From IMG/VR virus record IMGVR_UViG_3300028833_000072: 64,000 nt of DNA. One strand, 5' to 3'. The notes under the pieces are model-generated. The model was not told the origin of the DNA. It was given only the letters and a program-made list of their open reading frames with translations, and ran no database searches. The translations under genes were made by a program, and so were the position numbers. Source of the stretch: a virus. Its lineage: Duplodnaviria; Caudoviricetes. Shown here piece after piece: positions 1 to 39,338 of the stretch; position 1 is the stretch's first letter; each line of letters starts with the position of its first letter.

Positions 1-29
1 AATCATTAATATTAATTGAATTCATTATA

Positions 30-425
30 TATGTGCGGCGGATACTCCTGCTTTAACTGCAAGGAGCCGCGCTCCTCCTCTCTGTTAAATATGTCTTGCG
101 CCTAGAAATCAATACTAACTTCTTATAGCTAATACCAACAGAAATCTTAGTTCCATCAAGCTTACGAATATCAAAACTTCCACTCACACATCTGCCAAAG
201 ATAAAATCTACCTCACCTTGACATTTAACCTTATCAAAGAGCCTGTAACCAAAAAGCTCATACGGCAATTGATTTCTCTTGTGAGTGCCGCCTTTATTAA
301 TTGTAAGTTTATGAATCTGTCGATTATGTTTACGAACTTGCTTTTGATACCGTAGTTCTTGAAGAACCGAAGCTAGTCAAAAAGAACTTATACGAACTCA
401 CGTTTTTAGGCGTGGGGTTTTTAAC
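30..425 (-). mobile_element. Internally deleted IscB (IS200/IS605 OMEGA) element: 5' part of omegaRNA fused to IscB C-terminus and end hairpin
   Basis: Minus strand from 425 reads GTTAAAAACCCCACGCCTAAAAACGTGAGTT...TTGACTAGC...AACTACG (omegaRNA-like start). It runs straight into YQKQVRKHNRQIHKLTINKGGTHKRNQLPYELFGYRLFDKV (IscB C-terminus, similar to the 42598 IscB), then the end hairpin CTCCTTGCAGTTAAAGCAGGAGTATCCGCCGC. Confidence 0.75.
53..350 (-). pseudogene. iscB: IscB C-terminal fragment
   Basis: Frame open upstream of the ORF-track start; RxxNRQIHK...GG..KRNQ.PY..FG.RLFDKV motif; no RuvC-I/HNH region. Confidence 0.75.
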
Positions 426-530
426 TATATACTCCTATAATTTTTATAAAAAAATAAGACTTTATATATTAAAATAGATTAATATACAAGTCTTATTTTT
501 TTTATGTATATATTTTTTTATTCAATAGAA

Positions 531-11975: not shown

Positions 11976-14900
11976 TTATTTTTTATCTTTAAGTAATTTA
12001 TACAATCTAGCTAATGTACGTTTTTTAATAACAGATACACGTGATTGACTAATATTAAGAATTTTACCGATTTCTTGCTGTTTCTGATAATTTATTAAAA
12101 ATCTCTGCTCAATAAACTTCATTACGAATTTCTAATCTCTTTCTTCCTTAGAATTAATATATCATCAATTATATAAAATCTTATATAATTTTTTCATCAC
12201 TATTAATTAATCTTAATATATGTAACTACTTTAATGATATATTTAAAAACTAATATTCATAAATTAATTCAATATATATTTATCTTTTATATATATTATA
12301 ATCAATTCATAAAATCAATTTCAAGATTAAATCTCCAGTTAGTTAAACTAACTTTATTCGTATAGGCGTCACCAGGCCGCCTCTAATGTCTAAAATTTTC
12401 TTAACATCTTCTTTTAACCTAGATAATATCTTTTTATCTATTATTTGTTCTCCACAAATCAGATGTTCTTCATTTACAACATTACTTATAATATTACTTA
12501 TTTCTTTATTTAATAAAGCTTTTCTCATTATATTTAATGATCCATTTACATCTGCATTAATTTTTATATTATTATTCGTTTTATATAAACCTTTTCTTCT
12601 TATACCTGAAAATATTATTTTTTTTAATTCAACTTTATTTTTTATTGTTCTTAATGCATTCTTATCATAAGTAAATATATAATCATTATTTATAAAATTA
12701 GCTTTACTTGTATAACTTTCTTCTTGCATTATCAATTTTATATTTTTCTCTTCACATCTATATATTAATTGTTCTTTTAACTTATAAAATGGTATATTAG
12801 TTATTTTTTGATTACTTTTCTTTCCTAAATCTATATTTTGTTTCATACCTTGATTATATCCTAATATAATTATATGTATATCATTTTGTAAACAATATTT
12901 TACTATATAATTACATGTTTTATTAATATAATCATATATTCTATTATTTCGTTTATATGTAATATTATACATTTGCTTACTATAATGTATTTGATTATTT
13001 TTATTTTTATCTTCATTTAATTTCTTTTTTAAAAATTTAATTCTTTTATTATACCATTGATTATAAGATTTCAATTTTTTACCATCTATAATAAATGCTC
13101 TAAATTTATTTTTTAATTTTTCATATGGTTTATAAATAGTACAAGTAGTTAAATTATTAATTCCTAAATCTATAGATAGAATATTGAAATTATTATTTTC
13201 TTTAACCTGAGCTAAAGGATCAATTTGATCTTTTTCTTTTTCAAAATAATAATGGATTTCTATATACTTAGCCTTATATTTAGGAGTTATTCTTATTTGC
13301 CTTATTTTTTTATTTTCTAATATATGAAATATTTGTATTTTTATTCTATCATTTATTTTCATTAAATCATGTTCTTTTAAAAATTGATAACTCATTGGTA
13401 TAGTATAATATAGTTTATTATTAATTTTATTTATCCTTTTATCATCTTCAGAATCTATTAATTGAAAATATCCATCTTTATCAAGATATCGTGGCATATT
13501 GCATTTTATTTTTTTCTTTTTTAATGCTACAAAACTTTTAAAAGTTTCATATACTATTTTTAATATTTGTTGTGCACAAGCTGCTTGTATATACTTATAA
13601 TTATTTGAATTTTTTAGCATATTATATAAATCATAATAACTAATATATTTTCTATCTTTTTTTTCTTTATTTTGATTATCAAAGAAATTCTGTCTTAAAA
13701 TATAAAGTGCTTCATTAAATAAATTTTTTGAATAATGCAACATTTCTTTTAAAATATTGAAATATTGTTTATATTTTTTATAAGTAAGTTTTTGTTTAAA
13801 AATACTATAAGTAATATCCATTTTTTTATTATTAGACATTAATATTTTCACCTCCTTTATATTTATTAATAATATATTAAGAAGATGAAAATATAATAGT
13901 TTATTGAAAGAATTTAATTTTTAATAATATTTAAATCTCTCTATAAATGAGAGCAAAGGCTAAATCATTAATATACATATTATATTATTAATGATTTCAA
14001 TGAAAGATTTACTAAAAATTAGTCGTTAAATTAATATATATAAATTTATACATATTAAATATTGATACTATTCTAAAAGAATTATATACCAATAATTAAA
14101 TTAATTATGATACTTACTTTTATATCCTTGTAAAGTTAATTCTAAAATTTGTCTCTGCTTTACACTAATACGAGAACAAATATAATCACTATAAATCTTA
14201 GAATCAGTATAATCAATTTCATGAGAAACAATTTCTTCGTTATCTGATGTTTCAGCATTACCAAAATCCTGAATTTCAACCTAATATTTTTTAAAATATT
14301 TATTTATATCTTAAAAATTTATACCAATTAAACTCCCTATTTCTGAAAAAAATATTATCGTATTAAATAAAAATTTTCATTATAAATAACTTTACTATAT
14401 TTACATTTGCTTACTTGTTATTTAATAGTTAAATAGAATTTTTCTTTTTTTTATAATTAGTATTTTTCTTTTTAAGATTTTTATTAATAATTATTCACTT
14501 CTACAATTTTATACTTTATATATTATTTATATATAATAATTAAAATCATAATAAGCAAAATAATATTAATTATTTATAAATATTTTAAATAATTATATTT
14601 TAACTTTAATTAAAATATAGATTATATCATTAATATATATAAGATATATATAATTAATAATTCTATAAAAATATACAAAAATTAATCGTTAAATTTAAAT
14701 AAATATAAAAATTTAAATAAATTATTGATTTACTATATAATATAGTTGTACCAATAAATAATTAAATAATTCATCCCGCAATTAGGATGTTCTCGTTTAC
14801 GTTTAGTATAAAATCGCTGAATAAAGGCCCGAAGCTTAATAATCATGTTCTTAAATAAATATCTATCAAATGGAATAAATCCATTATTCCAATATGGATC

Positions 14901-15170
14901 ATATTGTTCAGAAAAATAAATAAAATAAAGATATGATTGTTGAAAAAGATCTTCCTTATTAAAACCTTTCCAATTAGCTAACTTATTAACTATACGAATC
15001 ATTTTTTCTTCATAACGTTCCCAAATTAATTCAGGATTATTAATAACATCATAATATTCTTCTTCAAAAGGTATAATTTTAACTTGTATTAAATGAGAAT
15101 CTTTGCTACGAGTAGCCATTTTTGCGGTTACTGGAGGCTTAAACCCATCATCATATTTAGTTCGAGCCAT
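11976..15170 (-). CDS. Sigma-70-family (sporulation-type) RNA polymerase sigma factor; 3 exons 15170-14784, 14280-14122, 12083-11976 (217 aa)
   Basis: Region-2-like EDLFQQSY...YDP...F..Y in exon 1; in-frame joins REHP|VEIQD and LQGY|KQQEIGKILNISQSRVSVIKKRTL (region 4.2 HTH). Confidence 0.85.
12084..14121 (-). mobile_element. Group I intron 2 of sigma gene carrying tnpB (IStron-like, 2038 nt)
   Basis: P1 GAUAU/GUAUC with U•G; P4 UAUUGG/UCAAUA; R UUAACGACUA; ends ...UUAUCAG; tnpB enclosed by inverted repeats; in-frame exon join GY|KQQE. Confidence 0.8.
12343..13851 (-). CDS. tnpB: TnpB (IS200/IS605-family RNA-guided endonuclease)
   Basis: SKNLFNEALY; RuvC-I SIDLG; QEESYTSK; RuvC-III INADVNGSLNI; AAGGAGG RBS; no Zn-finger cysteines. 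Confidence 0.9.
   Translation of the reverse strand: MKILMSNNKKMDITYSIFKQKLTYKKYKQYFNILKEMLHYSKNLFNEALYILRQNFFDNQNKEKKDRKYISYYDLYNMLKNSNNYKYIQAACAQQILKIVYETFKSFVALKKKKIKCNMPRYLDKDGYFQLIDSEDDKRINKINNKLYYTIPMSYQFLKEHDLMKINDRIKIQIFHILENKKIRQIRITPKYKAKYIEIHYYFEKEKDQIDPLAQVKENNNFNILSIDLGINNLTTCTIYKPYEKLKNKFRAFIIDGKKLKSYNQWYNKRIKFLKKKLNEDKNKNNQIHYSKQMYNITYKRNNRIYDYINKTCNYIVKYCLQNDIHIIILGYNQGMKQNIDLGKKSNQKITNIPFYKLKEQLIYRCEEKNIKLIMQEESYTSKANFINNDYIFTYDKNALRTIKNKVELKKIIFSGIRRKGLYKTNNNIKINADVNGSLNIMRKALLNKEISNIISNVVNEEHLICGEQIIDKKILSRLKEDVKKILDIRGGLVTPIRIKLV
14281..14783 (-). other. Group I intron 1 of sigma gene (503 nt, no intact ORF)
   Basis: P1 CAUCCU/GGGAUG with U•G at the splice site; P UUAUUGG / Q UCAAUAA; R UUAACGAUUA; S AUGAUAUAAUCU; ends AUUAG; in-frame join. 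Confidence 0.85.
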
Positions 15171-15233
15171 AATTATTTTCTCCTTTATAATAAAGAATAT
15201 TTTTTAAATACATTATACTATATAAGCATCTTT

Positions 15234-16478
15234 TTATTTAGGTTCCACAATTGACCAGCAAATATTCTTTTTATTAAAATATTTATTTGTAAATTTCTGT
15301 ATATCTTTATTTGTAATATTTAATACTATATCTAATATACTATCAATAGTATAATCAGTATTATAAATAAAATTATCTTCATGAATAGACAATTTGGCTG
15401 AAGTTGTTTCTAAAGCCAATAAAGATTTTCCTCTATATAAAGCTTTTAACGTATTTAATTCTTTATCATCAATTAATTCATGCTTTAATTTATTTAATTC
15501 TTGTACTATAATATTATGTACTTTATCAATATTTTCTTTTTTTAATCCACAATATCCCATTATATAAGATGTATCTCGTAAAGGATTAGTACTGACATTT
15601 ACAGTATATGCTAATCCTAATTTTTCGCGAATAATATTATAAAGTTTAGATATAAATCCCCCACCAAGATAATCTGCAATTAAATCTTGTATATAATAAT
15701 CTTTTTCATAAGGCGGTACTCCTTTAATAGCAAATCCTAAATGAGCTTGAGCTAAATCATTTTTTTGTAATCTAATTAATTGATTATTCATTATTTCATT
15801 ATTAAATATATTATTTCTATCTTGTATAATTTGTTTATCTTTATATAGCATAAAAATATTAATATCAGCTAATACTTCTTTAATAGGAACATTTCCAGCA
15901 ATTAATAATGCAACATTATTAGGCTGATAAAAAATTTTTAAAAATCTTTTTAAATCATCTACAGTTAATTTAGAAACACTATCTATTGTACCAGCTACAC
16001 GTTGTCTATTAGTAAATTTACGATTAATTAATATATCAAGATTTTCCATACATTTACTACGCGGTTTATCTTCATACATTTTTAATTCTTCTAATATAAC
16101 AGTTTTTTCCTGTTCAAATTCTTCTTCAGGCAAAACTGAATTCCAAAAAATATCATTTAATATTTCTAAATTATCTTTCCATTTATCTGCCGGAGAAGAA
16201 ATATAATATAATGTATGATCAAATGAAGTAGCCGCATTACAATATCCTCCTATAGCGGCTATATCATTATTAATATCATCAACAGTTCTGCTATTAGTAC
16301 CTTTGAACATCATATGTTCTAAAAAATGCGCCACGCCAAAATTATTATCAGCATCATAATCACCGTATTCGTCTAATGCTCCGCATGCTACAATATATTC
16401 AAAAGTACAACTTTTTGCATTAGTATCTTGTTCAATAACTATTTGTAATCCATTATCTAATTGAGTTTTATAAATCAT
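15234..16478 (-). CDS. M16 (pitrilysin/insulinase) family zinc peptidase
   Basis: GVAHFLEHMMFKGT inverted HxxEH motif, NAATS, IREKLGLAY. Confidence 0.92.
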   Translation of the reverse strand: MIYKTQLDNGLQIVIEQDTNAKSCTFEYIVACGALDEYGDYDADNNFGVAHFLEHMMFKGTNSRTVDDINNDIAAIGGYCNAATSFDHTLYYISSPADKWKDNLEILNDIFWNSVLPEEEFEQEKTVILEELKMYEDKPRSKCMENLDILINRKFTNRQRVAGTIDSVSKLTVDDLKRFLKIFYQPNNVALLIAGNVPIKEVLADINIFMLYKDKQIIQDRNNIFNNEIMNNQLIRLQKNDLAQAHLGFAIKGVPPYEKDYYIQDLIADYLGGGFISKLYNIIREKLGLAYTVNVSTNPLRDTSYIMGYCGLKKENIDKVHNIIVQELNKLKHELIDDKELNTLKALYRGKSLLALETTSAKLSIHEDNFIYNTDYTIDSILDIVLNITNKDIQKFTNKYFNKKNICWSIVEPK

Positions 16479-16589
16479 TCAATATATTCACCTATTATTA
16501 AAATACTTATTTTTATATTAAAAATCATTTTTATAGTTATATTTTAACTTAACAATTTTATTGTTATAATTTACATTATTCCATATGTA

Positions 16590-17900
16590 AAAAAATTTTT
16601 TTTATGATATAAATTTTTACAAGATATAAATAAAATTTATAATAATATAAATAAAGTTTCGCGAAACATATTTATATCTTAATAAATATAAATAGTTACT
16701 TTTTAACTTTATATCTTATTTATTTATACTTCATATATTAATACCTTATATATTAACAAATGATTTATATTAAATTTTAAAGATTTTATTTTAACTATTA
16801 CTATAATTTATATATTAAAGTAAAATAAATTAAAAAGGAAAAAATATAAAAACAAAGAAAAGTATATTTATAACTATATTAATTTTTCTTTGTGATATTA
16901 AAAAACTATAATTAATAAGTAAAGTTTATAATAGTATAAATAAAACTTTTACGAAACATATTTATATCTTAATACTATAATAGTTAATTTTTAACTTTAT
17001 ACCTTTTATTTATATTCTAGAAAAACAATATTTATATTAGATAAAAGGAATTAATTTTAACTATTATTATAATTTATATATTAAATTGAAATAAATCAAA
17101 AAAAGAATATAGAAATAAAAGAAAATATATTTTATATTTTAAATTACTAGTATATTAATTTCTCTCTGTAATATTAAAAACTATAATTAATAAGTAAAAC
17201 TTATAGTAATATAAATAATATTTCGCGAAACATATTTATATCTTAATACAATAAATAATTACTTTTTAACTTTATGTCCTTTATTTATATTCTAGAAAAA
17301 CAATATTTATATTAAATAAAAGGAATTAATTTTAATTATTACTATAAATTTTTTATATATTAAATTAAAATAAATTAAAAAGGAAAGTATATAGAAACAA
17401 AGGAAAGTATATTTATAACTTATTAATTATTATATAAATGTTTTTATATTGACATTTTATATGCTTTAAAAAATAATATTTATATTAAGTATTAAAAAAT
17501 TTAGTTTTAATTACTACTAAATTTATATACTAAGTTAAAATAAATTAAAAAGGAAAGTATATTAATAATTTTATTAATTATTATATTAATTATTCTTCAT
17601 GATATTAAAAAACTATAATTAATAAGTAAAGTTTATAATAGTATAAATAAAGTTTCACGAAACGTATTTATATCTTAATACTATAAATAGTTTTTTTTAA
17701 TTTTATACCTTATTTATACTCTAGAAAAATAATGTTTACATTAGATAAAAGGAATTAATTTTAATTATTATTATATTTTATATATTAAATTAAAATAAAT
17801 TAAAAAGGAAAGAATATAGAAGTAAAGGAAATTATATTTCGAATAACTTAGCTTTAGCCGGAGATGTAAATCGGAGGCAAAGCAAGTTTATTCGAAAATA
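16590..17900. repeat. Non-coding array of ~4 degenerate 270-430-bp repeat units
   Basis: Core GAAAC(A/G)TATTTATATCTTAATA at ~16663, 16953, 17227 and 17659, with shared TAAATTAAAAAGGAAAG and AAACTATAATTAATAAGTAAA blocks. Confidence 0.8.
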
Positions 17901-17901
17901 A

Positions 17902-17952
17902 AATTAATAGATAGCAAACAAAATAATAAATGTTTGCTATCTATTAATTTTT
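17902..17952. terminator. Long perfect hairpin, likely terminator for the subtilase gene
   Basis: AATTAATAGATAGCAAACA-loop-TGTTTGCTATCTATTAATT. Confidence 0.6.
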
Positions 17953-17970
17953 ATTAAAATAATTTATATA

Positions 17971-18825
17971 TTAAAAATGAAATAATCCTCTAGCGTAAAC
18001 GTAATCTGTTCCAGGTATACCTAAATCTTCGCATTGTTCATATAATATTTTTCTAATTTCAGCTGTATTTAATTTTCTACCTTCTTCTTTTAATATTTTA
18101 CTTTGAATTAAAGCAATAGCACCGGAAATTAAAGGACAACTAAAGCTTGTACCAGAATTAACTGCATATTTATTATTTAAAAATGTAGATGTAATTTCTA
18201 CACCTGGAGCCACTAATTCAGCATGTTTACCAGTACTATTAAATTTAGCAATACGCTTAATTGAATCAATAGCTCCTATTGAAATAACTTCATTATACTG
18301 TGCCGGAAATTCTACATCAGTAGCATATTTATTATTACCTGCAGCGGCACAAATAATAATACCAGCATTATATGCATGACAAATAATATCATGCAATGCA
18401 GAAAAATTGCGTGTTAATCCTAAACTACAATTAATGATATCTATTTTATTATTAATACACCATTCAATACCAGCTATTAATTGTCCTACTGATCCTTGTG
18501 AATGGTTATCTAACACTTTTACTGCATATATAGAACATTCTGGTGCTATGCCAATAATACCTATTTTATTTGCTGCACCAGCAATTAATCCTGCACAAAA
18601 TGTGCCGTGTCCTACATGATCCATATAATCATTTTTATTTGTAGTAGTAAAATTAACTCCACTAACAAAATTATCTTTTAAATCTATATGATGATAATCA
18701 ATTCCAGTATCTAAAATAGCAACTTTAATATCCTTGCCTTTAGTAACATTCCAATATTTCATAGGATTAATTAAATTTACGCCATAATCAATTATTTCAT
18801 TCTTTATTTGTACTGGCTTAAACAT
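17971..18825 (-). CDS. S8 subtilisin-family serine protease (no signal peptide evident)
   Basis: Catalytic triad motifs ILDTG, GHGTFCAG, SGTSFSCP; AAAGN oxyanion motif. Confidence 0.93.
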   Translation of the reverse strand: MFKPVQIKNEIIDYGVNLINPMKYWNVTKGKDIKVAILDTGIDYHHIDLKDNFVSGVNFTTTNKNDYMDHVGHGTFCAGLIAGAANKIGIIGIAPECSIYAVKVLDNHSQGSVGQLIAGIEWCINNKIDIINCSLGLTRNFSALHDIICHAYNAGIIICAAAGNNKYATDVEFPAQYNEVISIGAIDSIKRIAKFNSTGKHAELVAPGVEITSTFLNNKYAVNSGTSFSCPLISGAIALIQSKILKEEGRKLNTAEIRKILYEQCEDLGIPGTDYVYARGLFHF

Positions 18826-18929
18826 ACTAATTTTTCACCTGCCTTAAAATATATTTACATTATAAAAATAATTGTATTATTATTTTAATACTATTAAAAT
18901 AAATTATAATAATATAAATTAAAAAGTGT

Positions 18930-19780
18930 ATTAAAAATTTTTCGTGATTTAAAAAATAATTATATTAATAAACTATACTTATAGTATAATAGATAAAACT
19001 TTCACGAAACATATTTATATCTTAATACTATAAATAGTTACTTTTTAAATTTATACCTTATTTTTTTATGTTCTAGAAAATAATATTTACATTAAATAAA
19101 AAAAATTAATTTTAATTTTATATTAAGTTAAAATAAAGTAAAAAAAGAATATAAAAACAAAGAAAAGTATATTTATAACTATATTAATTTTTCTTTGTGA
19201 TATTAAAAAACTATAATTAATAAATAAAGTTTATGTTAGTATAAATAAAACTTTTACGAAACATATTTATATCTTAATACATATAATTAATTAATTTTTA
19301 ACTTTATACCTTATTTCTTTATACTTCATATATTAATACCTTATATATTAACAAATGATTTATATTAAATTTTAAAAATTTTATTTTAACTATTACTATA
19401 ATTTATATATTAAATTAAAATAAATTAAAAAGGAAAGAATATAAAAACAAAAAAAAGTATATTTATAATTTTATTAATTACTATATTAATTACTTTTCGC
19501 GATATTAAAAAAACTATAATTAATAAATAAAGTTTATGTTAGTATAAATAATATTTTCGCGAAACATATTTATATCTTAATACAATAAATAATTACTTTT
19601 TAACTTTATACCTTTTATTTATATTCTAAAAAATAATATTTATATTAGATAAAAGGAATTTATTTTAATTTTATATATTAAATTAAAATAAATTAAAAAG
19701 GAAAGTATATAGAAGCAAAGGAAAGTATATTTTGAATAATTTAGCTATAGCCAGAGATAAGACTAAACTTATTCGAAAAA
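18930..19780. repeat. Second array of ~3 copies of the same non-coding repeat
   Basis: Core at ~19006, 19258 and 19561; ends with GAATAA-TTAGCT-TAGCC...TTATTCGAAAA like the first array. Confidence 0.8.
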
Positions 19781-19890
19781 AAATAATAGATATATTTTGC
19801 CAAAAAATATTATCTATTATTTTTTTTATAATATTAAATAAATAATATTATTTATTTTTTTACTATATTAAAAAGGAGATTAAAGTAAAA

Positions 19891-20598
19891 ATGAATAACT
19901 ATTATAATAATATGAATTTATGGTTAAATGATATTACTTATAAATCTATAGATTCAATTAATACTAATGATATATTAATTAATAATAATCAAATATTAAA
20001 AATTCAAAATAAATTAATTCCTGTATTAACAGTATTTACTGATTTAAATTATTTTACTATTGGTTATGATAATACATTATTAGTATATGATAATGAGCAG
20101 TCAAAAACTATATTAGCAAAAGATTATATTAATAGTAATTATAGATATAAAATTAAACTATCTGCAATTGAAACTGATTATGAATATTCTAAAGTAAATG
20201 CTTATTATGCTGGATATGATTTAATATTTACTTACTTATTATATACTTCTATTGCTACTAGAAAATCTATATTAGCCGGTATTATTGATAATCTATCAAT
20301 TACCTTTATTCCTAAAGGTATATCTATTAATATTGATGATGAAAAAATAAAAAATAATATTGCTAATTTAACTCGTAGTTTAGGATATATTACTTTTATT
20401 AGACCTAATTGTATTAATTTATTAGGTAATTTTAATGATATACCAGTAAAAGAAAAAAAAGAAATTCAACATATAGATTATAATAATCTTTATGTAGGCT
20501 TTTCTATTATAGATAATAATCAATCAATGATATGCTATAATATTCAATGCAATAATAATATTGGTATTAATAATAATGGATTAGAAATTTTATTATAA
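19891..20598 (+). CDS. Degenerate intein-like protein (Hint + LAGLIDADG-like remnant), free-standing
   Basis: YKSIDSINTND (block A-like), RKSILAGIIDN (LAGLIDADG-like), LTRSLG, CYNIQC..N.GI.NNG (block F-like); own AAGGAG RBS. Confidence 0.5.
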   Translation: MNNYYNNMNLWLNDITYKSIDSINTNDILINNNQILKIQNKLIPVLTVFTDLNYFTIGYDNTLLVYDNEQSKTILAKDYINSNYRYKIKLSAIETDYEYSKVNAYYAGYDLIFTYLLYTSIATRKSILAGIIDNLSITFIPKGISINIDDEKIKNNIANLTRSLGYITFIRPNCINLLGNFNDIPVKEKKEIQHIDYNNLYVGFSIIDNNQSMICYNIQCNNNIGINNNGLEILL

Positions 20599-20629
20599 AT
20601 CTTTTTATTTTAGAAAGGTATTTTATAAC

Positions 20630-21040
20630 ATGCTTGGAATTAATACATGTATATTAATGTCTAATTTACATTATAAAAAAATACAAGATATTATTATAGG
20701 CGATTTAATAAGAACTATAAATAATTCATATGTAAAAATAATTCATATATATTCCGGAATTAATCGTTTATATAATATTATTACTGATAAATTTGGTACA
20801 TATCAAATTACTAGCGATCATAAATTAGCACTATTACATAATAATAATTATACATTTGCAACAATTAATGATTTAAAAAATAATTATAATTATCAAGGAT
20901 ATATATTATCAAGTGATTATCCTATCATATATAATTTTTCAATTGAATTATCTAATATTAATATATATTATGGATTCAATGTAAATTCTGTTGATAACAG
21001 AATTATTATTAATAATAATATTATTACATACAGTAAATAA
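20630..21040 (+). CDS. Free-standing Hint-domain (mini-intein-like) protein
   Basis: LGINTCILMSNLHYKKIQDIIIGD (block A), ITSDH (block B TxxH), YYGFNV..DN.II.NN.IT (block F/G); lacks N-terminal Cys and C-terminal His-Asn. Confidence 0.65.
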   Translation: MLGINTCILMSNLHYKKIQDIIIGDLIRTINNSYVKIIHIYSGINRLYNIITDKFGTYQITSDHKLALLHNNNYTFATINDLKNNYNYQGYILSSDYPIIYNFSIELSNINIYYGFNVNSVDNRIIINNNIITYSK

Positions 21041-21055
21041 GTCTGGTGATTTTAT

Positions 21056-32100: not shown

Positions 32101-35100
32101 TTGCGAATAGTACTAGCTACATCAATTTCGCTGCCGCTTGTAGAATCATCCTCAAGAATATCTTGTAAAGCAGTATTAATTTGTTCTAATGCATCATTAA
32201 TAGAAGTATTAATTTCATCAGTAACATCTGCAGATTTAGCATAAGCTTCTAAACTAGAATAAACATCATCTACTGCATTAGTAATTTCTTCTGTTACTGT
32301 GGCCGAATCAACTTTTTTAGCCATTTCTGTATTAATAGCTTCCATAGAAGTTTCTACGCTATCAATTCGGTCTTCTAATGATTCTACAGCTTCAGTAACT
32401 GATGAAGTAGTAGCTAATCCGCTTAAATTACTATTAATAGCAGTAATAGAATTTTCTACAGAAGCAATTTTTTCATCCATGGAACTTACTTTTGTGTCCA
32501 TAGTATTAATTGATTCATTAGCCGCTACGAGTTGAGTATTAAAAGCATTTTCTAAAGTTGTTAAATTAGATTCAACTGTGGTTTTATCCGCTTTATCATT
32601 TAATAAACTATTAACATCAGTTTTCGTATATACATCATTTTTAACAGCCTTAGTATCTAATGTATTATTAATAACATCAATATTGTTATTAATAGTTGTA
32701 ACACTTCCATTAATGGTATTAATATTATTATTAATGGTTGTAATATTTCCTTTTACAGTTTCAAGATTATTATTAACATTAGTAATTTGGCTATTAGTCA
32801 TAGTCGCACTATCTGCAATTTTACTTTCTAATGCTGTTTTTGTTGAATTAATATTATCATTAATAGCTGCGGTTGCAGTGGCAACACTATTTTCAATAGC
32901 ATTATTAGCTTGTGCTTTAGTATAAACATCAGTAATACCATATTCACTTAATGATGTAGGCTTATTAATAATGTTATTAAAATCAAGATTAATATTTTCC
33001 CAATTAGCAGCGGCAACAAGAATCCAATCTGATCCATTATAAATATATGAATTACCAGTAGTGGTTTCAAAAGCTTTAGCGCCAGAAATTAATCCAGTTA
33101 AGGCTAAACGCTCATCAACATTAGTAACAATATAAGTAGCTTGTTTAGCAACATCAGGAATTTGTTCTAGAGAAATTTTGCCATTAACATCTAATCCTGC
33201 ATAACCGTTAGATACGTTTTTATTTGCTACATTTTCAGGTGTATAATTATATTTATCTTGTTTAGCATTAGCTACAGCAGTAATTTGTTCAGTAACTTCA
33301 GCTTTATCAGCTTTAATTGCTAATAAATTATCTGCATCTTCTTTGGTATATACTGTAGTCATTAATGTATTAATATCATCTTTAGTGTATGTAGTTTCTT
33401 TATCAGCTTTAATAGCGATATTAGTATTAATAGTATCAACTGCATTATTTAATTCATTAGTCGCTGTATTAGCTACATCATCAACATGAGCTGTTAAATT
33501 ATTAATAATAGTATCTAAATCTTTAATAGAGCCTTCGACTGCAGTTCTATTATTAGCAACAGTAGTTGATAATTCATTAATTTGATCTGTTAAATCTACA
33601 GATAGATTATCAACAGATTCAATTGAAGCAAATTTATCAAATGATTCAATATCAGCTTTTTCAAGAATATTAGTTTCTGCTTGTGCTAATACAGCTTCAT
33701 TTGCAGTAGCAATAGCTTCTGTATATTCAGAATCAATTTTAGACTTAACATCTATAATTAATTGTTTAGTAGAATTAATAACTTCTGTAATATCAGAATC
33801 CGCACTGCCACTAGTGTCTTTACCAGCAACATTTTGTAATGTATTGTTAATAGCTTTTAGTGCAGAAGAAATTGCATTATCAATGTTAGTATCAACTTCG
33901 TCAGAAGTGTATACTTCATCTTTATTATATACATCTGCTACGTTAGCTTTTATATCATTTAAATTGGTAACACTAGTATTAAGTGTTGCAATAGTTTCAT
34001 TCTGTTCGGTAATAGCATTTTCTGTAGTTTCTTTTAATGTATTAAATTGATCTGCAACATTATTTACAGTATCATTTAATTGGCTATGTTTATCCATAGC
34101 AGTAGTTAATTTATTGTCGATATTATTAGCAATAGTTGTATAACTTGCTAATACATCTGCATTATTTTGAGCAATACGAGCTGTTGCTTCGACAACAGTT
34201 TGCTGAACATTTTGAGATGCAGTAGTAATTTTTTCATCAACAACAGCTAAACGATTTTGAATAGCTGTTTCTGTATTTTCTTGAATTTGATTAAATACAA
34301 CAGTCGCATCTGCAATTTTTGTATCTACAGAAGTATTAAGAGCTTCAATTTTAGGATCTACATTATCTGTTACAGCTGTATTAACTTCGTCAGTAATACT
34401 ATTTTGTACATCACTAATTTCAGCACGTAATGCCGCTAACATTTCACGGTGTTTTTGATCAACTTCTTCAGTAGAATAAACTGATGTACGACTACTTTTA
34501 CCACCTGGTGTACGAGTAGGATCAATAGGAATCCAATTGCCATCAGAATCGGTATATTCCATTTGATCAAGATCTTCATTCCAACGTAAGCCTGCAGACA
34601 TTTGAGATCCGCGACGGAATTCTAATACTAAATTAGATGAATTTAAGCCTACTGCATTTTTATTAATTGTAAAAATTTTACGAGTAGTACCATCACCAGT
34701 AACAACATCAGATAACCGATCTTCGACATCTTGCATTGTTAATTTAGTATCTAAAGCATCTTGTAAACCAGTAATAGCTGCAATATTATGAGAATCAGCA
34801 CTATCAAGATCAGTTAAATCTTTATGTGATTTAATTACATTGGTAACTGAAAATAATGGACGAAGATCTTGAATTTGATCATCATAAATAGCTGTAGTAC
34901 TTTCCGAAATAACAACTGCAGCTAAAGGTAAAAAGTCTATAGGAAGATTAGTAGGTAAGCTAGGATTATCTCTAATTGCAGCTTCACTATAAATAACAAC
35001 CGCTTGTGAACCGCGTAAACCGATTACAGCTAAAGCTGTACCAGCTGTAACAGAAGATAAAACAACTGAGCCACCGGCATATTCAATTAAATTATTATTA

Positions 35101-35408
35101 ACCCATGCACTACCTTCATTAATACGAACTGTAAGACTAGGCGGAGTATTAGCTTTTACACGTAAAACTTGATTAAAAACTCCCCAGGATCTAAATGAAC
35201 TTCCATAACAATTATATTATTAAATATATTATTATTTATATTTTTTATCAAAAATAATTTAGCATATGCCTTTTTAACTAATGAAATAATAATTTATATG
35301 CGTTGTATTACTTATTTATTAATAAATAAATAGTAAAATCAAATTATAATTATTAATTATATTCTTGAAATTAATTCTATTTTCGGCTTATATAACCGGA
35401 ATATTCAT
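29109..35408 (-). CDS. Giant tail-fibre-like coiled-coil protein; 2 exons 35408-35395 and 35208-29109 (2037 aa)
   Basis: GAGGTGA RBS + MNIPV|YGSSFRSWG; frame open 157 codons upstream of the ORF-track start; KAN..DVYTK repeats; duplicated NGYAGLD.NGK / NIINKPTSL..YGITD module. Confidence 0.8.
35209..35394 (-). other. Group I intron in tail-fibre gene (186 nt, ORF-less)
   Basis: P1 CGGU/GCCG with U•G; R ACAACGCAUA; S AAGGCAUAUGCU (P7 GCAUA/UAUGC); ends AAUAUAAUUG; GT|T join in frame. Confidence 0.82.
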
Positions 35409-37165: not shown

Positions 37166-38137
37166 TTATAAATTATATATATTTAACATTAAATTATTAA
37201 TTTTATCATAATTCGGATTATTAGGTAAAGTACTATATTGATATGCTTTATTAATTTCTAATTGTAAATCATCTTTTAATTTAAATATTTCTTGCATAGA
37301 TAACTGACCATTTCTAATATCCATTAATAATTTATGTTCTTTATATCTATAAGTATTAATTTGCTGGTTTTTTAATATATCTATTCCTATTAAATATAAT
37401 CGAATAAGATGCATTGCATGTTTATATAAATGTAATGTATCTTTTTTCTTATTTCTATTGTTAATTTTATTAAAATTATTTACATTAGCTTCTAATCCTT
37501 TAATAAAAGAAATTAAATACTTTAATGATATATTATTACTACTAATATTACATTTTAATTCATTATCTAAATAAATATTAAATTCTCCATTAAATTGATT
37601 TGATTCTTTTAATAACATAGATTGTATTGAATTTAATATTTGTTCATCTTTATTATTAGTTAACGATAAAGCATTTTCTAATTGTTGTAATTGTGCAGTA
37701 GCATATCCAATAAATGTATTATAGGCTTTTTTACTTAAGAATAATTGATAATTATTTCTTAATTCCTTACCAATATCATTTATAAATAATATATGTTCTT
37801 TTTTTGTTCCCAGTAATTCTATAATATTAGGATTACAATTAATTAATAATTTTATAAATTTTTTAAATGAATATAATACAGTATCTGTATTCTCATTAAT
37901 ATAATCTTCTTTAATCTGATTTAATGTAAAAAAATCATTTTTATCTTCTAAATAAAATCCTCGAATATCTATATCACTATTTTCATTATTAGTACCATAA
38001 GCATAAGAACCTGCTAAAGTTAAATAACATATAGAATGATTTATAAAAAAAATATCATTAAAAAAATGATATTTTGCTAAATATTCATCATAATTTATAA
38101 ATGAAAATTCATTTAACTTTTTATATATATTAATCAT
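37166..38137 (-). CDS. Pol-beta-superfamily nucleotidyltransferase (YcgL/RlaP-like)
   Basis: GSYAYGTNNENSDIDIRG; NPNIIELL; KHAMHLIRL. Confidence 0.85.
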   Translation of the reverse strand: MINIYKKLNEFSFINYDEYLAKYHFFNDIFFINHSICYLTLAGSYAYGTNNENSDIDIRGFYLEDKNDFFTLNQIKEDYINENTDTVLYSFKKFIKLLINCNPNIIELLGTKKEHILFINDIGKELRNNYQLFLSKKAYNTFIGYATAQLQQLENALSLTNNKDEQILNSIQSMLLKESNQFNGEFNIYLDNELKCNISSNNISLKYLISFIKGLEANVNNFNKINNRNKKKDTLHLYKHAMHLIRLYLIGIDILKNQQINTYRYKEHKLLMDIRNGQLSMQEIFKLKDDLQLEINKAYQYSTLPNNPNYDKINNLMLNIYNL

Positions 38138-38165: not shown

Positions 38166-39338
38166 TTAAACTAATCTTTTAATTTTAGTAGAACAATATA
38201 AACCAATAAAATATAATGATGCAATTAATACTAATGATATTAAATACGAATTTGTATAATTATATAATATAATAATTATAAATGGACCTAATAATCCTGC
38301 TAATGCCCAAGCAAATAAAATCGCACCGAATATTGATCCAGCATGCATTTCACCAAATATATATGCAGTTAAAGCTGGTAAACATGCAAATCCAGCTCCA
38401 TAACAACTAGCTATAATTAATAAACTACTTACAGTTAAAAATGAATTAATATTAATAATACATAATGTAATACATATTAATTGAATGCTAAATAAAATTT
38501 TATAAATATTAATATATCCTAATTTATCCGCTAAATTAGCAAAAAAAGGTCTACCTAATCCATTAGCTATACCAATAAAACTAACAAGTATAGCTGTATT
38601 TAATAATAATTCATTACCTAAAGGAGCTGCAATTGAAATTAATGATATTCCAATAAATATATTAATAAAAATCATTATAAATATATAATAAAATTCTTTC
38701 GTTTTTAAAGCCTGTTCTTTAGTTAAAGAATGATCATCATTATTTTTTATTTCATTTATATATACAAATGGTTTTAATAATAAACTTGCTGCTAACATTA
38801 ATATACCATATATAAAACCAATAATAATAAAAGCATTAATTATATTAGAAAATAAATTTACAAATGGTACAAATATCGCAGATCCTAATCCAAAACTTAA
38901 TATACTAATACTAGATCCTAAAGCTTTATTATTTGGGAATTCTTGAAGTAATAATGGTATTGGAATTAAATAAATAATTCCAACTCCAATACCTAACAAA
39001 ATACCATATATTATATATAACATAAATATATTTATATTTGATAAATTTAATATTAATCCAGTGCCTATCATACCAAACATAAATAATATAGATCCAATAA
39101 TAGCGCTTTTATACGGTTTTATTGACATTATATAATTACCGCCAAAACTAGTAGTAGTTCCTAAAGTAAAAATGGTTAAGCAAAATACTACTTGTATTGC
39201 TTGTATGGAAAAATTAGTAATTTCATATATAGGCTGTATAAAAATGCTCCAAGAATAAATTGAACCAATACATAATGATAATATAATAGATGCAATTATT
39301 ATTGATATTTTTTTAGACATAAATTCATCTTCTTTCAT
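38166..39338 (-). CDS. MFS transporter, OFA (oxalate/formate/lactate antiporter)-like
   Basis: ~12 hydrophobic helices; GSIYSWSIF, NGLGRPFFANLADKLG, CYGAGFA..PA. Confidence 0.85.
   Translation of the reverse strand: MKEDEFMSKKISIIIASIILSLCIGSIYSWSIFIQPIYEITNFSIQAIQVVFCLTIFTLGTTTSFGGNYIMSIKPYKSAIIGSILFMFGMIGTGLILNLSNINIFMLYIIYGILLGIGVGIIYLIPIPLLLQEFPNNKALGSSISILSFGLGSAIFVPFVNLFSNIINAFIIIGFIYGILMLAASLLLKPFVYINEIKNNDDHSLTKEQALKTKEFYYIFIMIFINIFIGISLISIAAPLGNELLLNTAILVSFIGIANGLGRPFFANLADKLGYINIYKILFSIQLICITLCIININSFLTVSSLLIIASCYGAGFACLPALTAYIFGEMHAGSIFGAILFAWALAGLLGPFIIIILYNYTNSYLISLVLIASLYFIGLYCSTKIKRLV

Follow-up and report, generated by a model that had tools for sequence, protein, structure and literature searches.

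How a phage could make a sigma factor, a terminase and a tail-fibre-like protein from genes that are broken into pieces is the question raised by a 64,000-nucleotide (nt) stretch of a Caudoviricetes record in IMG/VR (IMGVR_UViG_3300028833_000072), hereafter the window, in which the sigma gene, terL and a tail-fibre-like gene are together interrupted by six inserts between positions 11,976 and 35,408. An earlier note on this DNA, made without database searches, had read the inserts as a family of AT-rich mini-introns and had proposed that a shared maturase makes their splicing a switch for late genes. Our sequence analysis identifies all six inserts as group I introns, and we consider it probable, with good confidence, that they belong to a heavy colonisation of this phage by mobile selfish introns. 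Whilst automated annotation leaves the terminase, portal, capsid, sigma and tail-fibre genes of this phage lineage in fragments, the intron model restores them; no new regulatory system is established.

Interrupted genes and group I anatomy

The exons were located through Bacillus phage G, the closest cultured relative of this phage. In tblastn searches phage G gp1 (terminase) aligned with terL as four collinear pieces, all exons lying in frame +2 (37% identity over 275 amino acids (aa) for exon 4), and gp3 (sigma) mapped onto three pieces of the sigma gene, the second gap containing a TnpB open reading frame (ORF) of 502 aa; gp255 is 31% identical to the second tail-fibre-like exon over the first 156 aa. 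All six introns that the earlier note had placed in these three genes do exist, with exons collinear with gp1, gp3 and gp255, and its count of five introns without an ORF also stands, none of the five holding one of more than 40 aa. The junctions are fixed because uninterrupted relatives, i.e. phage G TerL, sigma and gp255 and a metagenomic TerL fragment (P0126), read across them; joining at the sigma intron 2 junction gives the same length as phage G gp3. Each terL insert contains between four and nine stop codons, with TAA, TAG and TGA all represented. In the tail-fibre-like gene, the ORF lists give no in-frame start codon within the first ~157 codons of exon 2, an ATG-bearing exon of 14 nt lies 186 nt upstream, and the N-terminus predicted after splicing, MNIPV/YG, resembles the MNIPPYG of phage G gp255. 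No ATG, GTG or TTG start was found for terL exon 1, the sole candidate being an ATA at 21056 after GGTGA.

The six introns share one layout, in which a guide located 7-14 nt inside the intron is complementary to the final 4-7 nt of the upstream exon (helix P1), with a U.G pair at the splice site. P4-P5 and P6 then form two hairpins, which are followed by J6/7-P7 (nt 85-113), P8 and J8/7-P7', and the intron closes with a G, which stands at the position required by homology in all six. These blocks can be aligned across 14 members of the family and correspond to the consensus elements P, Q, R and S that are classical for group I introns. The four P7 pairings quoted in the earlier note are present, one of the other two introns having a P7 of 4 base pairs (bp) and the other a P7 with one bulge. 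It was likewise correct that terL intron 1 and the tail-fibre intron share an ending, their last 12 nt being identical, and that three other introns end in ATTAG or AATTG, the TnpB-bearing intron ending in TCAG; its proposal of a related family of group I introns with covarying P7 is borne out.

Within this layout the individual introns differ in the strength of their exon pairings. The most compact of them, terL intron 2, retains P1, P3-P8, P10 and the P, Q, R and S elements, is without P2 and leaves no space for P9; it has a 6-bp P1 with an adjacent 8-bp P10 and is the top match (70.7 bits) to a covariance model, R1, which was built from 14 mini-introns. The same model scores the tail-fibre intron at 59.5 bits (4-bp P1 with U.G, adjacent 5-bp P10, P7 at nt 94/129, terminal G), terL intron 3 at 58.2 bits (7-bp P1, 5-bp P10) and terL intron 1 at 34.9 bits (4-bp P1 with U.G, P7 at nt 113/146, terminal G). 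In the sigma gene, intron 1 has its guide at nt 7, a 6-bp P1 including the U.G pair and P7 at nt 97/160, the last 6 nt of exon A, which ends in ATCCT, being complementary to this guide; intron 2 has a 5-bp P1 with U.G and its guide at nt 9.

How far these features exceed chance was gauged with 4000 random T...G pseudo-introns drawn from the same genome, set against the six window introns and seven introns of the capsid gene described below. A P1 with U.G within 40 nt of the 5' splice site occurs in 12 of the 13 introns (4-7 bp, guide at nt 7-28; the thirteenth has a 7-bp P1 at nt 50) and in 22% of the controls, for which the figures are 22% for a P1 of at least 4 bp and 4% for one of at least 6 bp. 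A combined P1 and P10 score of at least 8 is reached by 8/13 introns, five of which score 11-15, and by 4% of the controls. P10 pairs with the start of the 3' exon, so that the 3' splice site is fixed independently; it comprises 3-8 bp lying within 2 nt of the P1 strand in seven of the 13 introns, directly adjacent to that strand except in terL intron 3; in terL intron 1, the two sigma introns and capsid introns 4-6 it is poorly formed or lacking. Helix P4 had no part in intron finding, and both partners have changed in five of its seven pairs; P7 is 98.6% paired with an invariant G-C. Individual introns contain 9-19% G+C; the P4 and P7 columns reach 34%, compared with 9% in the rest of the introns. 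When only the six window introns were used, MAFFT gave a structurally inconsistent alignment, and the 14-member alignment was usable; run over 159 kb, R1 recovered its 14 members at E<=0.02 and nothing else convincing.

Table 1. Positions of exons, introns and related elements; numbering is that of the window, or of the complete record where marked contig.
Feature	Position	Strand	Description
Sigma exon A	14784..15170	-	129 codons from ATG; 53% identity to phage G gp3 (tblastn)
Sigma intron 1	14281..14783	-	503 nt, no ORF; group I, IStron lineage, tnpB lost
Sigma exon B	14122..14280	-	53 codons, start of region 4; phage G gp3 tblastn
Sigma intron 2	12084..14121	-	2038 nt; IStron-type group I intron with tnpB
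tnpB in sigma intron 2	12343..13851	-	502 aa; Pfam OrfB_IS605 2.9e-15, Cas12f1-like_TNB 5.3e-07, PHROG 506 transposase 6e-26
Sigma exon C	11976..12083	-	Region 4.2 and stop codon; Pfam Sigma70_r4 2.5e-09; 69% identity to phage G gp3
terL exon 1	21056..21346	+	tblastn with phage G gp1 residues 14-93; start uncertain
terL intron 1	21347..21550	+	204 nt, no ORF; splits Walker A between G and K
terL exon 2	21551..21876	+	Pfam Terminase_6N, PHROG 2; 52% identity to phage G gp1
terL intron 2	21877..22014	+	138 nt, no ORF
terL exon 3	22015..22259	+	tblastn with phage G gp1
terL intron 3	22260..22433	+	174 nt, no ORF
terL exon 4	22434..23221	+	Nuclease domain and stop codon; PHROG 5909 8e-11
Tail-fibre-like exon 2	29109..35208	-	~2030 codons
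Tail-fibre intron	35209..35394	-	186 nt, no ORF
Tail-fibre-like exon 1	35395..35408	-	14 nt with ATG
Capsid gene	contig 67006-70522	-	9 introns, 10 exons
Further tnpB-bearing IStron-type elements	contig 89300-94843	-	Two, in portal gene
	contig 71888-73600	-	
	contig 1-470	+	Partial

Two intein-like ORFs lie directly 5' of terL (window 19891-21049, +), with sub-threshold Hom_end and Hom_end_hint matches, the second of which shares its frame with terL exon 1, a TAA and a TGA standing between them. Also adjoining terL (window 23419-25920, +) is a gene whose 833-aa product combines numerous HTH_17 repeats with a NUMOD1 match; this protein might act as a free-standing homing endonuclease and mobilise introns that have no ORF.

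Two intron kinds and their distribution

The window (its positions 1-63941) corresponds to the terminal 64 kb of a 158,834-base record that is rated ~32% complete, has a G+C content of 22.5% and is a fragment of a phage-G-like rumen megaphage. The genes for gp1, gp2 (peptidase) and gp3 are adjacent in phage G, and their homologues are also neighbours in this record. The terL region is present in public runs from sheep, goat and other gut metagenomes, and in a sheep gut metatranscriptome (X4) a fraction of 0.60 of the sampled terL-region words is present, a figure that says nothing on splicing.

The pattern that had been described for the window extends upstream of it through the record, in which a search for the J6/7-P7...P7' signature, followed by homology mapping to phage G, yields at least 26 group I introns, most of them absent from close relatives; ~19 are backed by split homologous genes and the remainder by the core signature only. 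The strict regular expression for P7 gave 46 matches, against 35.5 expected in shuffles, which were accepted only with full core context, and a relaxed expression (386 matches) was too noisy and was dropped. The most heavily interrupted gene is that for the capsid protein, a homologue of phage G gp27 whose 283 codons (an 849-nt coding sequence) are distributed over 10 exons by nine group I introns of 153, 273, 202, 196, 435, 815, 183, ~195 and ~226 nt, the 815-nt intron holding an endonuclease-like ORF. Its shortest exons measure 23, 29 and 40 nt, and 14 nt of the 23-nt exon pair with the guides of the two introns that flank it. The portal gene has three introns, two of which are ~2 kb long and carry tnpB; the capsid-decoration gene has one, directly 3' of a 13-nt first exon; and an nrdD-like gene has four cores, one adjoining an endonuclease-like ORF. 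Besides these, one tnpB intron lies at 73.5 kb and one mini-intron at about 3.1 kb, and the record opens with a partial tnpB element.

Two kinds of intron can be distinguished. Mini-introns are ORF-less, 138-273 nt long and reduced to P1, P3-P8, P10 and sometimes a small P9. IStron-type introns have a group I core at the 5' end and then an IS200/IS605-type tnpB, as seen in sigma intron 2, portal introns 1 and 3 and the 73.5-kb element; in sigma intron 2 the ribozyme core occupies the first ~165 nt, followed by tnpB and then by ~260 nt ending in TCAG. The five tnpB copies form three lineages, with 45-48% identity between lineages and 76-88% within one, and the RuvC D, E and D motifs are kept in the four full-length TnpB copies, the fifth being a C-terminal fragment with the last D. 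Sigma intron 2 and portal intron 1 have an AT-ending site at the 5' side and a TCAG end, as in group A IStrons (PMC4227781). ATCCT precedes portal intron 3, the 73.5-kb element and sigma intron 1, each of which ends in TTAG and in this differs from group A IStrons. Since sigma intron 1 is near-identical to the TnpB-bearing portal intron 3 in its 5' core and at its 3' end, with the ATCCT target in common and the ORF gone, its sequence reads clearly as a tnpB-less deletion derivative of this second IStron lineage. The group of five ORF-less mini-introns recognised in the earlier note accordingly holds as regards the lack of ORFs, and comprises in fact four mini-introns and one decayed IStron. 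An inverted-repeat search in sigma intron 2 returned 153 pairs in 2 kb of AT-rich DNA, none of them outstanding.

Comparison with relatives indicates that the introns are discrete, mobile and sporadically distributed, because there are relatives that lack them or that have inteins at the same sites. In a Logan contig from a related phage (L010), with 81-97% nt identity across the capsid exons, exons 1-8 are contiguous, which means that introns 1-7 of the nine are absent, intron 8 is kept at 97% identity, and the last capsid intron occupies a different site, a few nt away from that of capsid intron 9. Each of the seven capsid junctions defined in this way permits only one split in which the exon ends in T and the intron in G. 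The metagenomic TerL fragment P0126 (88% identity) lacks terL intron 3, its exons 3 and 4 being continuous with the codon split as predicted, and inteins sit at the terL intron 1 site in relatives P0001 and P0004 and at the terL intron 2 site in relatives. R1 gave no match in 20 kb around the capsid gene of more distant relatives, nor in the 497 kb of phage G. When TerL and capsid proteins of the same phage were sought in spliced or intron-less form, only relatives came up, none at 100% identity, and terL exon 4, used as a query against viral_contigs, brought up no close relative.

Some neighbouring features of the window and of a relative are recorded here in their own right. In the related phage L011 (7342-8904), a 520-aa RVT_1 protein encoded just 5' of the capsid gene resembles a group II intron reverse transcriptase, and the relatives may host group II introns too. 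In the window, a subtilisin-like protease gene is flanked by two non-coding stretches of ~1-1.5 kb and ~11% G+C (16478-17971 and 18825-19891) that contain dispersed repeated units, and the same short peptide-like strings recur in ORF translations. Genes at 37166-38137 and 38166-39338 (-) specify a nucleotidyltransferase of the RlaP family, which belongs to the RNA repair pathway, and an MFS transporter; they adjoin ORF 39861, which bears a weak DALR hit.

Excision, folding and alternative readings

On the reading that we favour, each intron would be removed by the standard guanosine-initiated two-step transesterification, with the internal guide sequence aligning both exons via P1 and P10. Conserved essential genes would be occupied because they are good homing targets and require exact removal; spread would proceed by homing aided by intron-encoded or free-standing endonucleases and, for the IStrons, would be aided by RNA-guided TnpB. 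The introns would then delay or tax expression as any intron would, and we see no sign of a dedicated regulatory switch. Several points weigh against this reading. Splicing is predicted here from the DNA sequence. Folding at 39 C is predicted to yield no more than -0.09 to -0.15 kcal/mol/nt, mostly no improvement on dinucleotide shuffles (z scores of -1.7 to +0.6), so that the weak-folding premise of the earlier note is upheld and unaided self-splicing is not assured. The Rfam group I model (RF00028) gave no match at the gathering score or at E<=10, a silence that we attribute to model insensitivity, given the extreme base composition and small size, rather than to absence of the introns; the introns are likely far more AU-rich and shorter than the sequences on which that model was trained. 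Covariation in P7 is partly circular for those introns that were found by a regular expression requiring complementarity. Finally, by homology, P1 and P10, capsid intron 9 (contig 67054-67279, -) appears to end in A and not in the near-universal G.

The weak folds, with z scores near zero, together with the lack of peripheral stabilisers (no P2, little or no P9), are also what would be expected if the AU-rich mini-introns needed one shared phage- or host-encoded maturase, with splicing acting as a checkpoint for sigma, terminase and structural genes. The AU-rich group I introns of mitochondria require protein partners, for instance CYT-18 or LAGLIDADG maturases, and this proposal could further draw on the two genes with an intron directly after a start-codon exon of 13-14 nt, which makes protein output dependent on splicing, yet so does any intron. 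We nevertheless consider it unlikely. No maturase was found, and none of the three ORFs named as splicing factors in the earlier note has maturase features: ORF 23419 is the HTH_17/NUMOD1 array, whose closer resemblance is to free-standing homing endonucleases, and all that was matched, below threshold, is DALR_1 in ORF 39861 and Hom_end in ORF 19891. The introns are, moreover, sporadic (in L010, P0126, the distant relatives and phage G), and their irregular presence in close relatives speaks against any regulatory role that is conserved; the few G and C bases cluster in the core helices, where an autonomous ribozyme needs them, and P1 and P10 show the good pairing expected of one. Two of the six window introns are, in addition, of the IStron type, a self-splicing class (PMC4227781), and IStrons of this type were self-splicing in all cases tested (PMC4227781). 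The idea of a shared maturase that turns splicing into a late-gene switch is thus not sustained, and the fold predictions make it possible that the introns rely on general RNA chaperones, which would be likelier than a switch based on a dedicated maturase.

Another reading takes the mini-introns, instead of as classical homing introns, as non-autonomous derivatives of IStrons, moved as DNA by IS200/IS605 machinery in trans. In its favour, sigma intron 1 is clearly a tnpB-less derivative of the portal intron 3 lineage, the record has five tnpB copies, and ORF-less IStron variants are known (PMC4227781). However, the four mini-introns of the window follow different exon ends with no common pentanucleotide, none of them ends in TCAG, R1, which was built on mini-introns, misses the IStron-type cores, and no tnpA-like ORF was noticed in the regions examined, in which no dedicated tnpA search was made; we rate this origin as improbable, slightly more so than a shared maturase. 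Least credible is that the inserts are never removed, the genes being pseudogenes of a defective phage or being read through stop-codon recoding or ribosomal bypass. That the three terL inserts are all multiples of 3 nt, with four exons in frame +2, would fit such a reading, but inserts of 138-2038 nt far exceed known bypass gaps, the terminase, portal and capsid genes are essential and all are interrupted, the exons are conserved relative to those of relatives (81-97% nt identity to L010), and the group I features go far beyond chance. Stop-codon recoding, which the shared terL frame had brought to mind, is excluded, since every terL insert is full of all three stops.

Comparison with known systems

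Group I introns that splice themselves out and spread selfishly, our preferred explanation, reach extremes here, among them a complete group I core in 138 nt, the nine introns and the 23-nt exon of the capsid gene, and RNA-guided TnpB introns inside phage structural genes. The record bears on the minimal size of a natural group I ribozyme, on whether very AU-rich introns need protein help and on the order of splicing when introns are tightly packed. With 138 nt, 9-19% G+C and neither P2 nor P9, these introns come near the lower limits of size and G+C among natural group I introns. A bolder proposal, that they cannot fold by themselves and depend on a general or dedicated RNA chaperone of phage or host, splicing of at least 26 introns in capsid, portal, terminase, sigma and tail genes thereby forming a global checkpoint on virion production, we regard as unlikely. 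Among classical phage systems, Twort orf142 and T4 td, nrdB and nrdD have several self-splicing group I introns, some ORF-less, at conserved motifs of conserved genes. Those introns are at least ~250 nt without their ORFs, have a more normal base composition and number at most three per gene, whereas here nine introns interrupt an 849-nt coding sequence, one intron measures 138 nt and G+C is 9-19%. The AU-rich cores with weak helices resemble those of the protein-dependent mitochondrial introns (CYT-18, LAGLIDADG), the difference being that no maturase or cofactor has been identified here.

The tnpB-bearing introns resemble group A IStrons of the CdISt1 type (PMC4227781; bioRxiv 10.1101/2023.11.20.567912) in having a 5' ribozyme followed by ORF B, a T-ending pentanucleotide target and a TCAG end, and in occurring as several copies per genome together with ORF-less derivatives. 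IStrons are known in Firmicutes, Fusobacteria and Clostridium botulinum phages, with ORF-less variants among them, and the only phage elements in that survey were group B elements of the C. botulinum phages (PMC4227781). In contrast, those described here occupy genes of a lytic-type megaphage, portal and sigma among them, one lineage ends in TTAG after ATCCT, and no ORF A was noticed.

The closest parallels to the mini-introns come from large gut phages. Jug phages carry a mean of 18.5 group I introns of ~206 nt per genome, with terL in two to three pieces and nrdD fragmented, and 37 of 76 predicted introns have metatranscriptome support for splicing (PMC12880540); crAss-like Zeta phages have as many as 14 introns, and their capsid gene is divided into five (PMC7886860). 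As in the Jug and the crAss-like Zeta and Delta phages, essential genes of a large gut phage are interrupted by group I introns of ~200 nt that have no ORF, with inteins elsewhere. The phage studied here belongs, however, to another, phage-G-like lineage, with 22% G+C and from sheep and goat gut; at least 26 introns fall within 159 kb, compared with 18.5 per 360-402 kb in Jug phages; and its capsid gene is cut into 10 parts, including exons of 23-40 nt, rather than the five of the crAss-like phages, tnpB IStrons being mixed in. Dense arrays of small group I introns are therefore already known in gut jumbo phages, and what distinguishes the present record is their density, small size and base composition.

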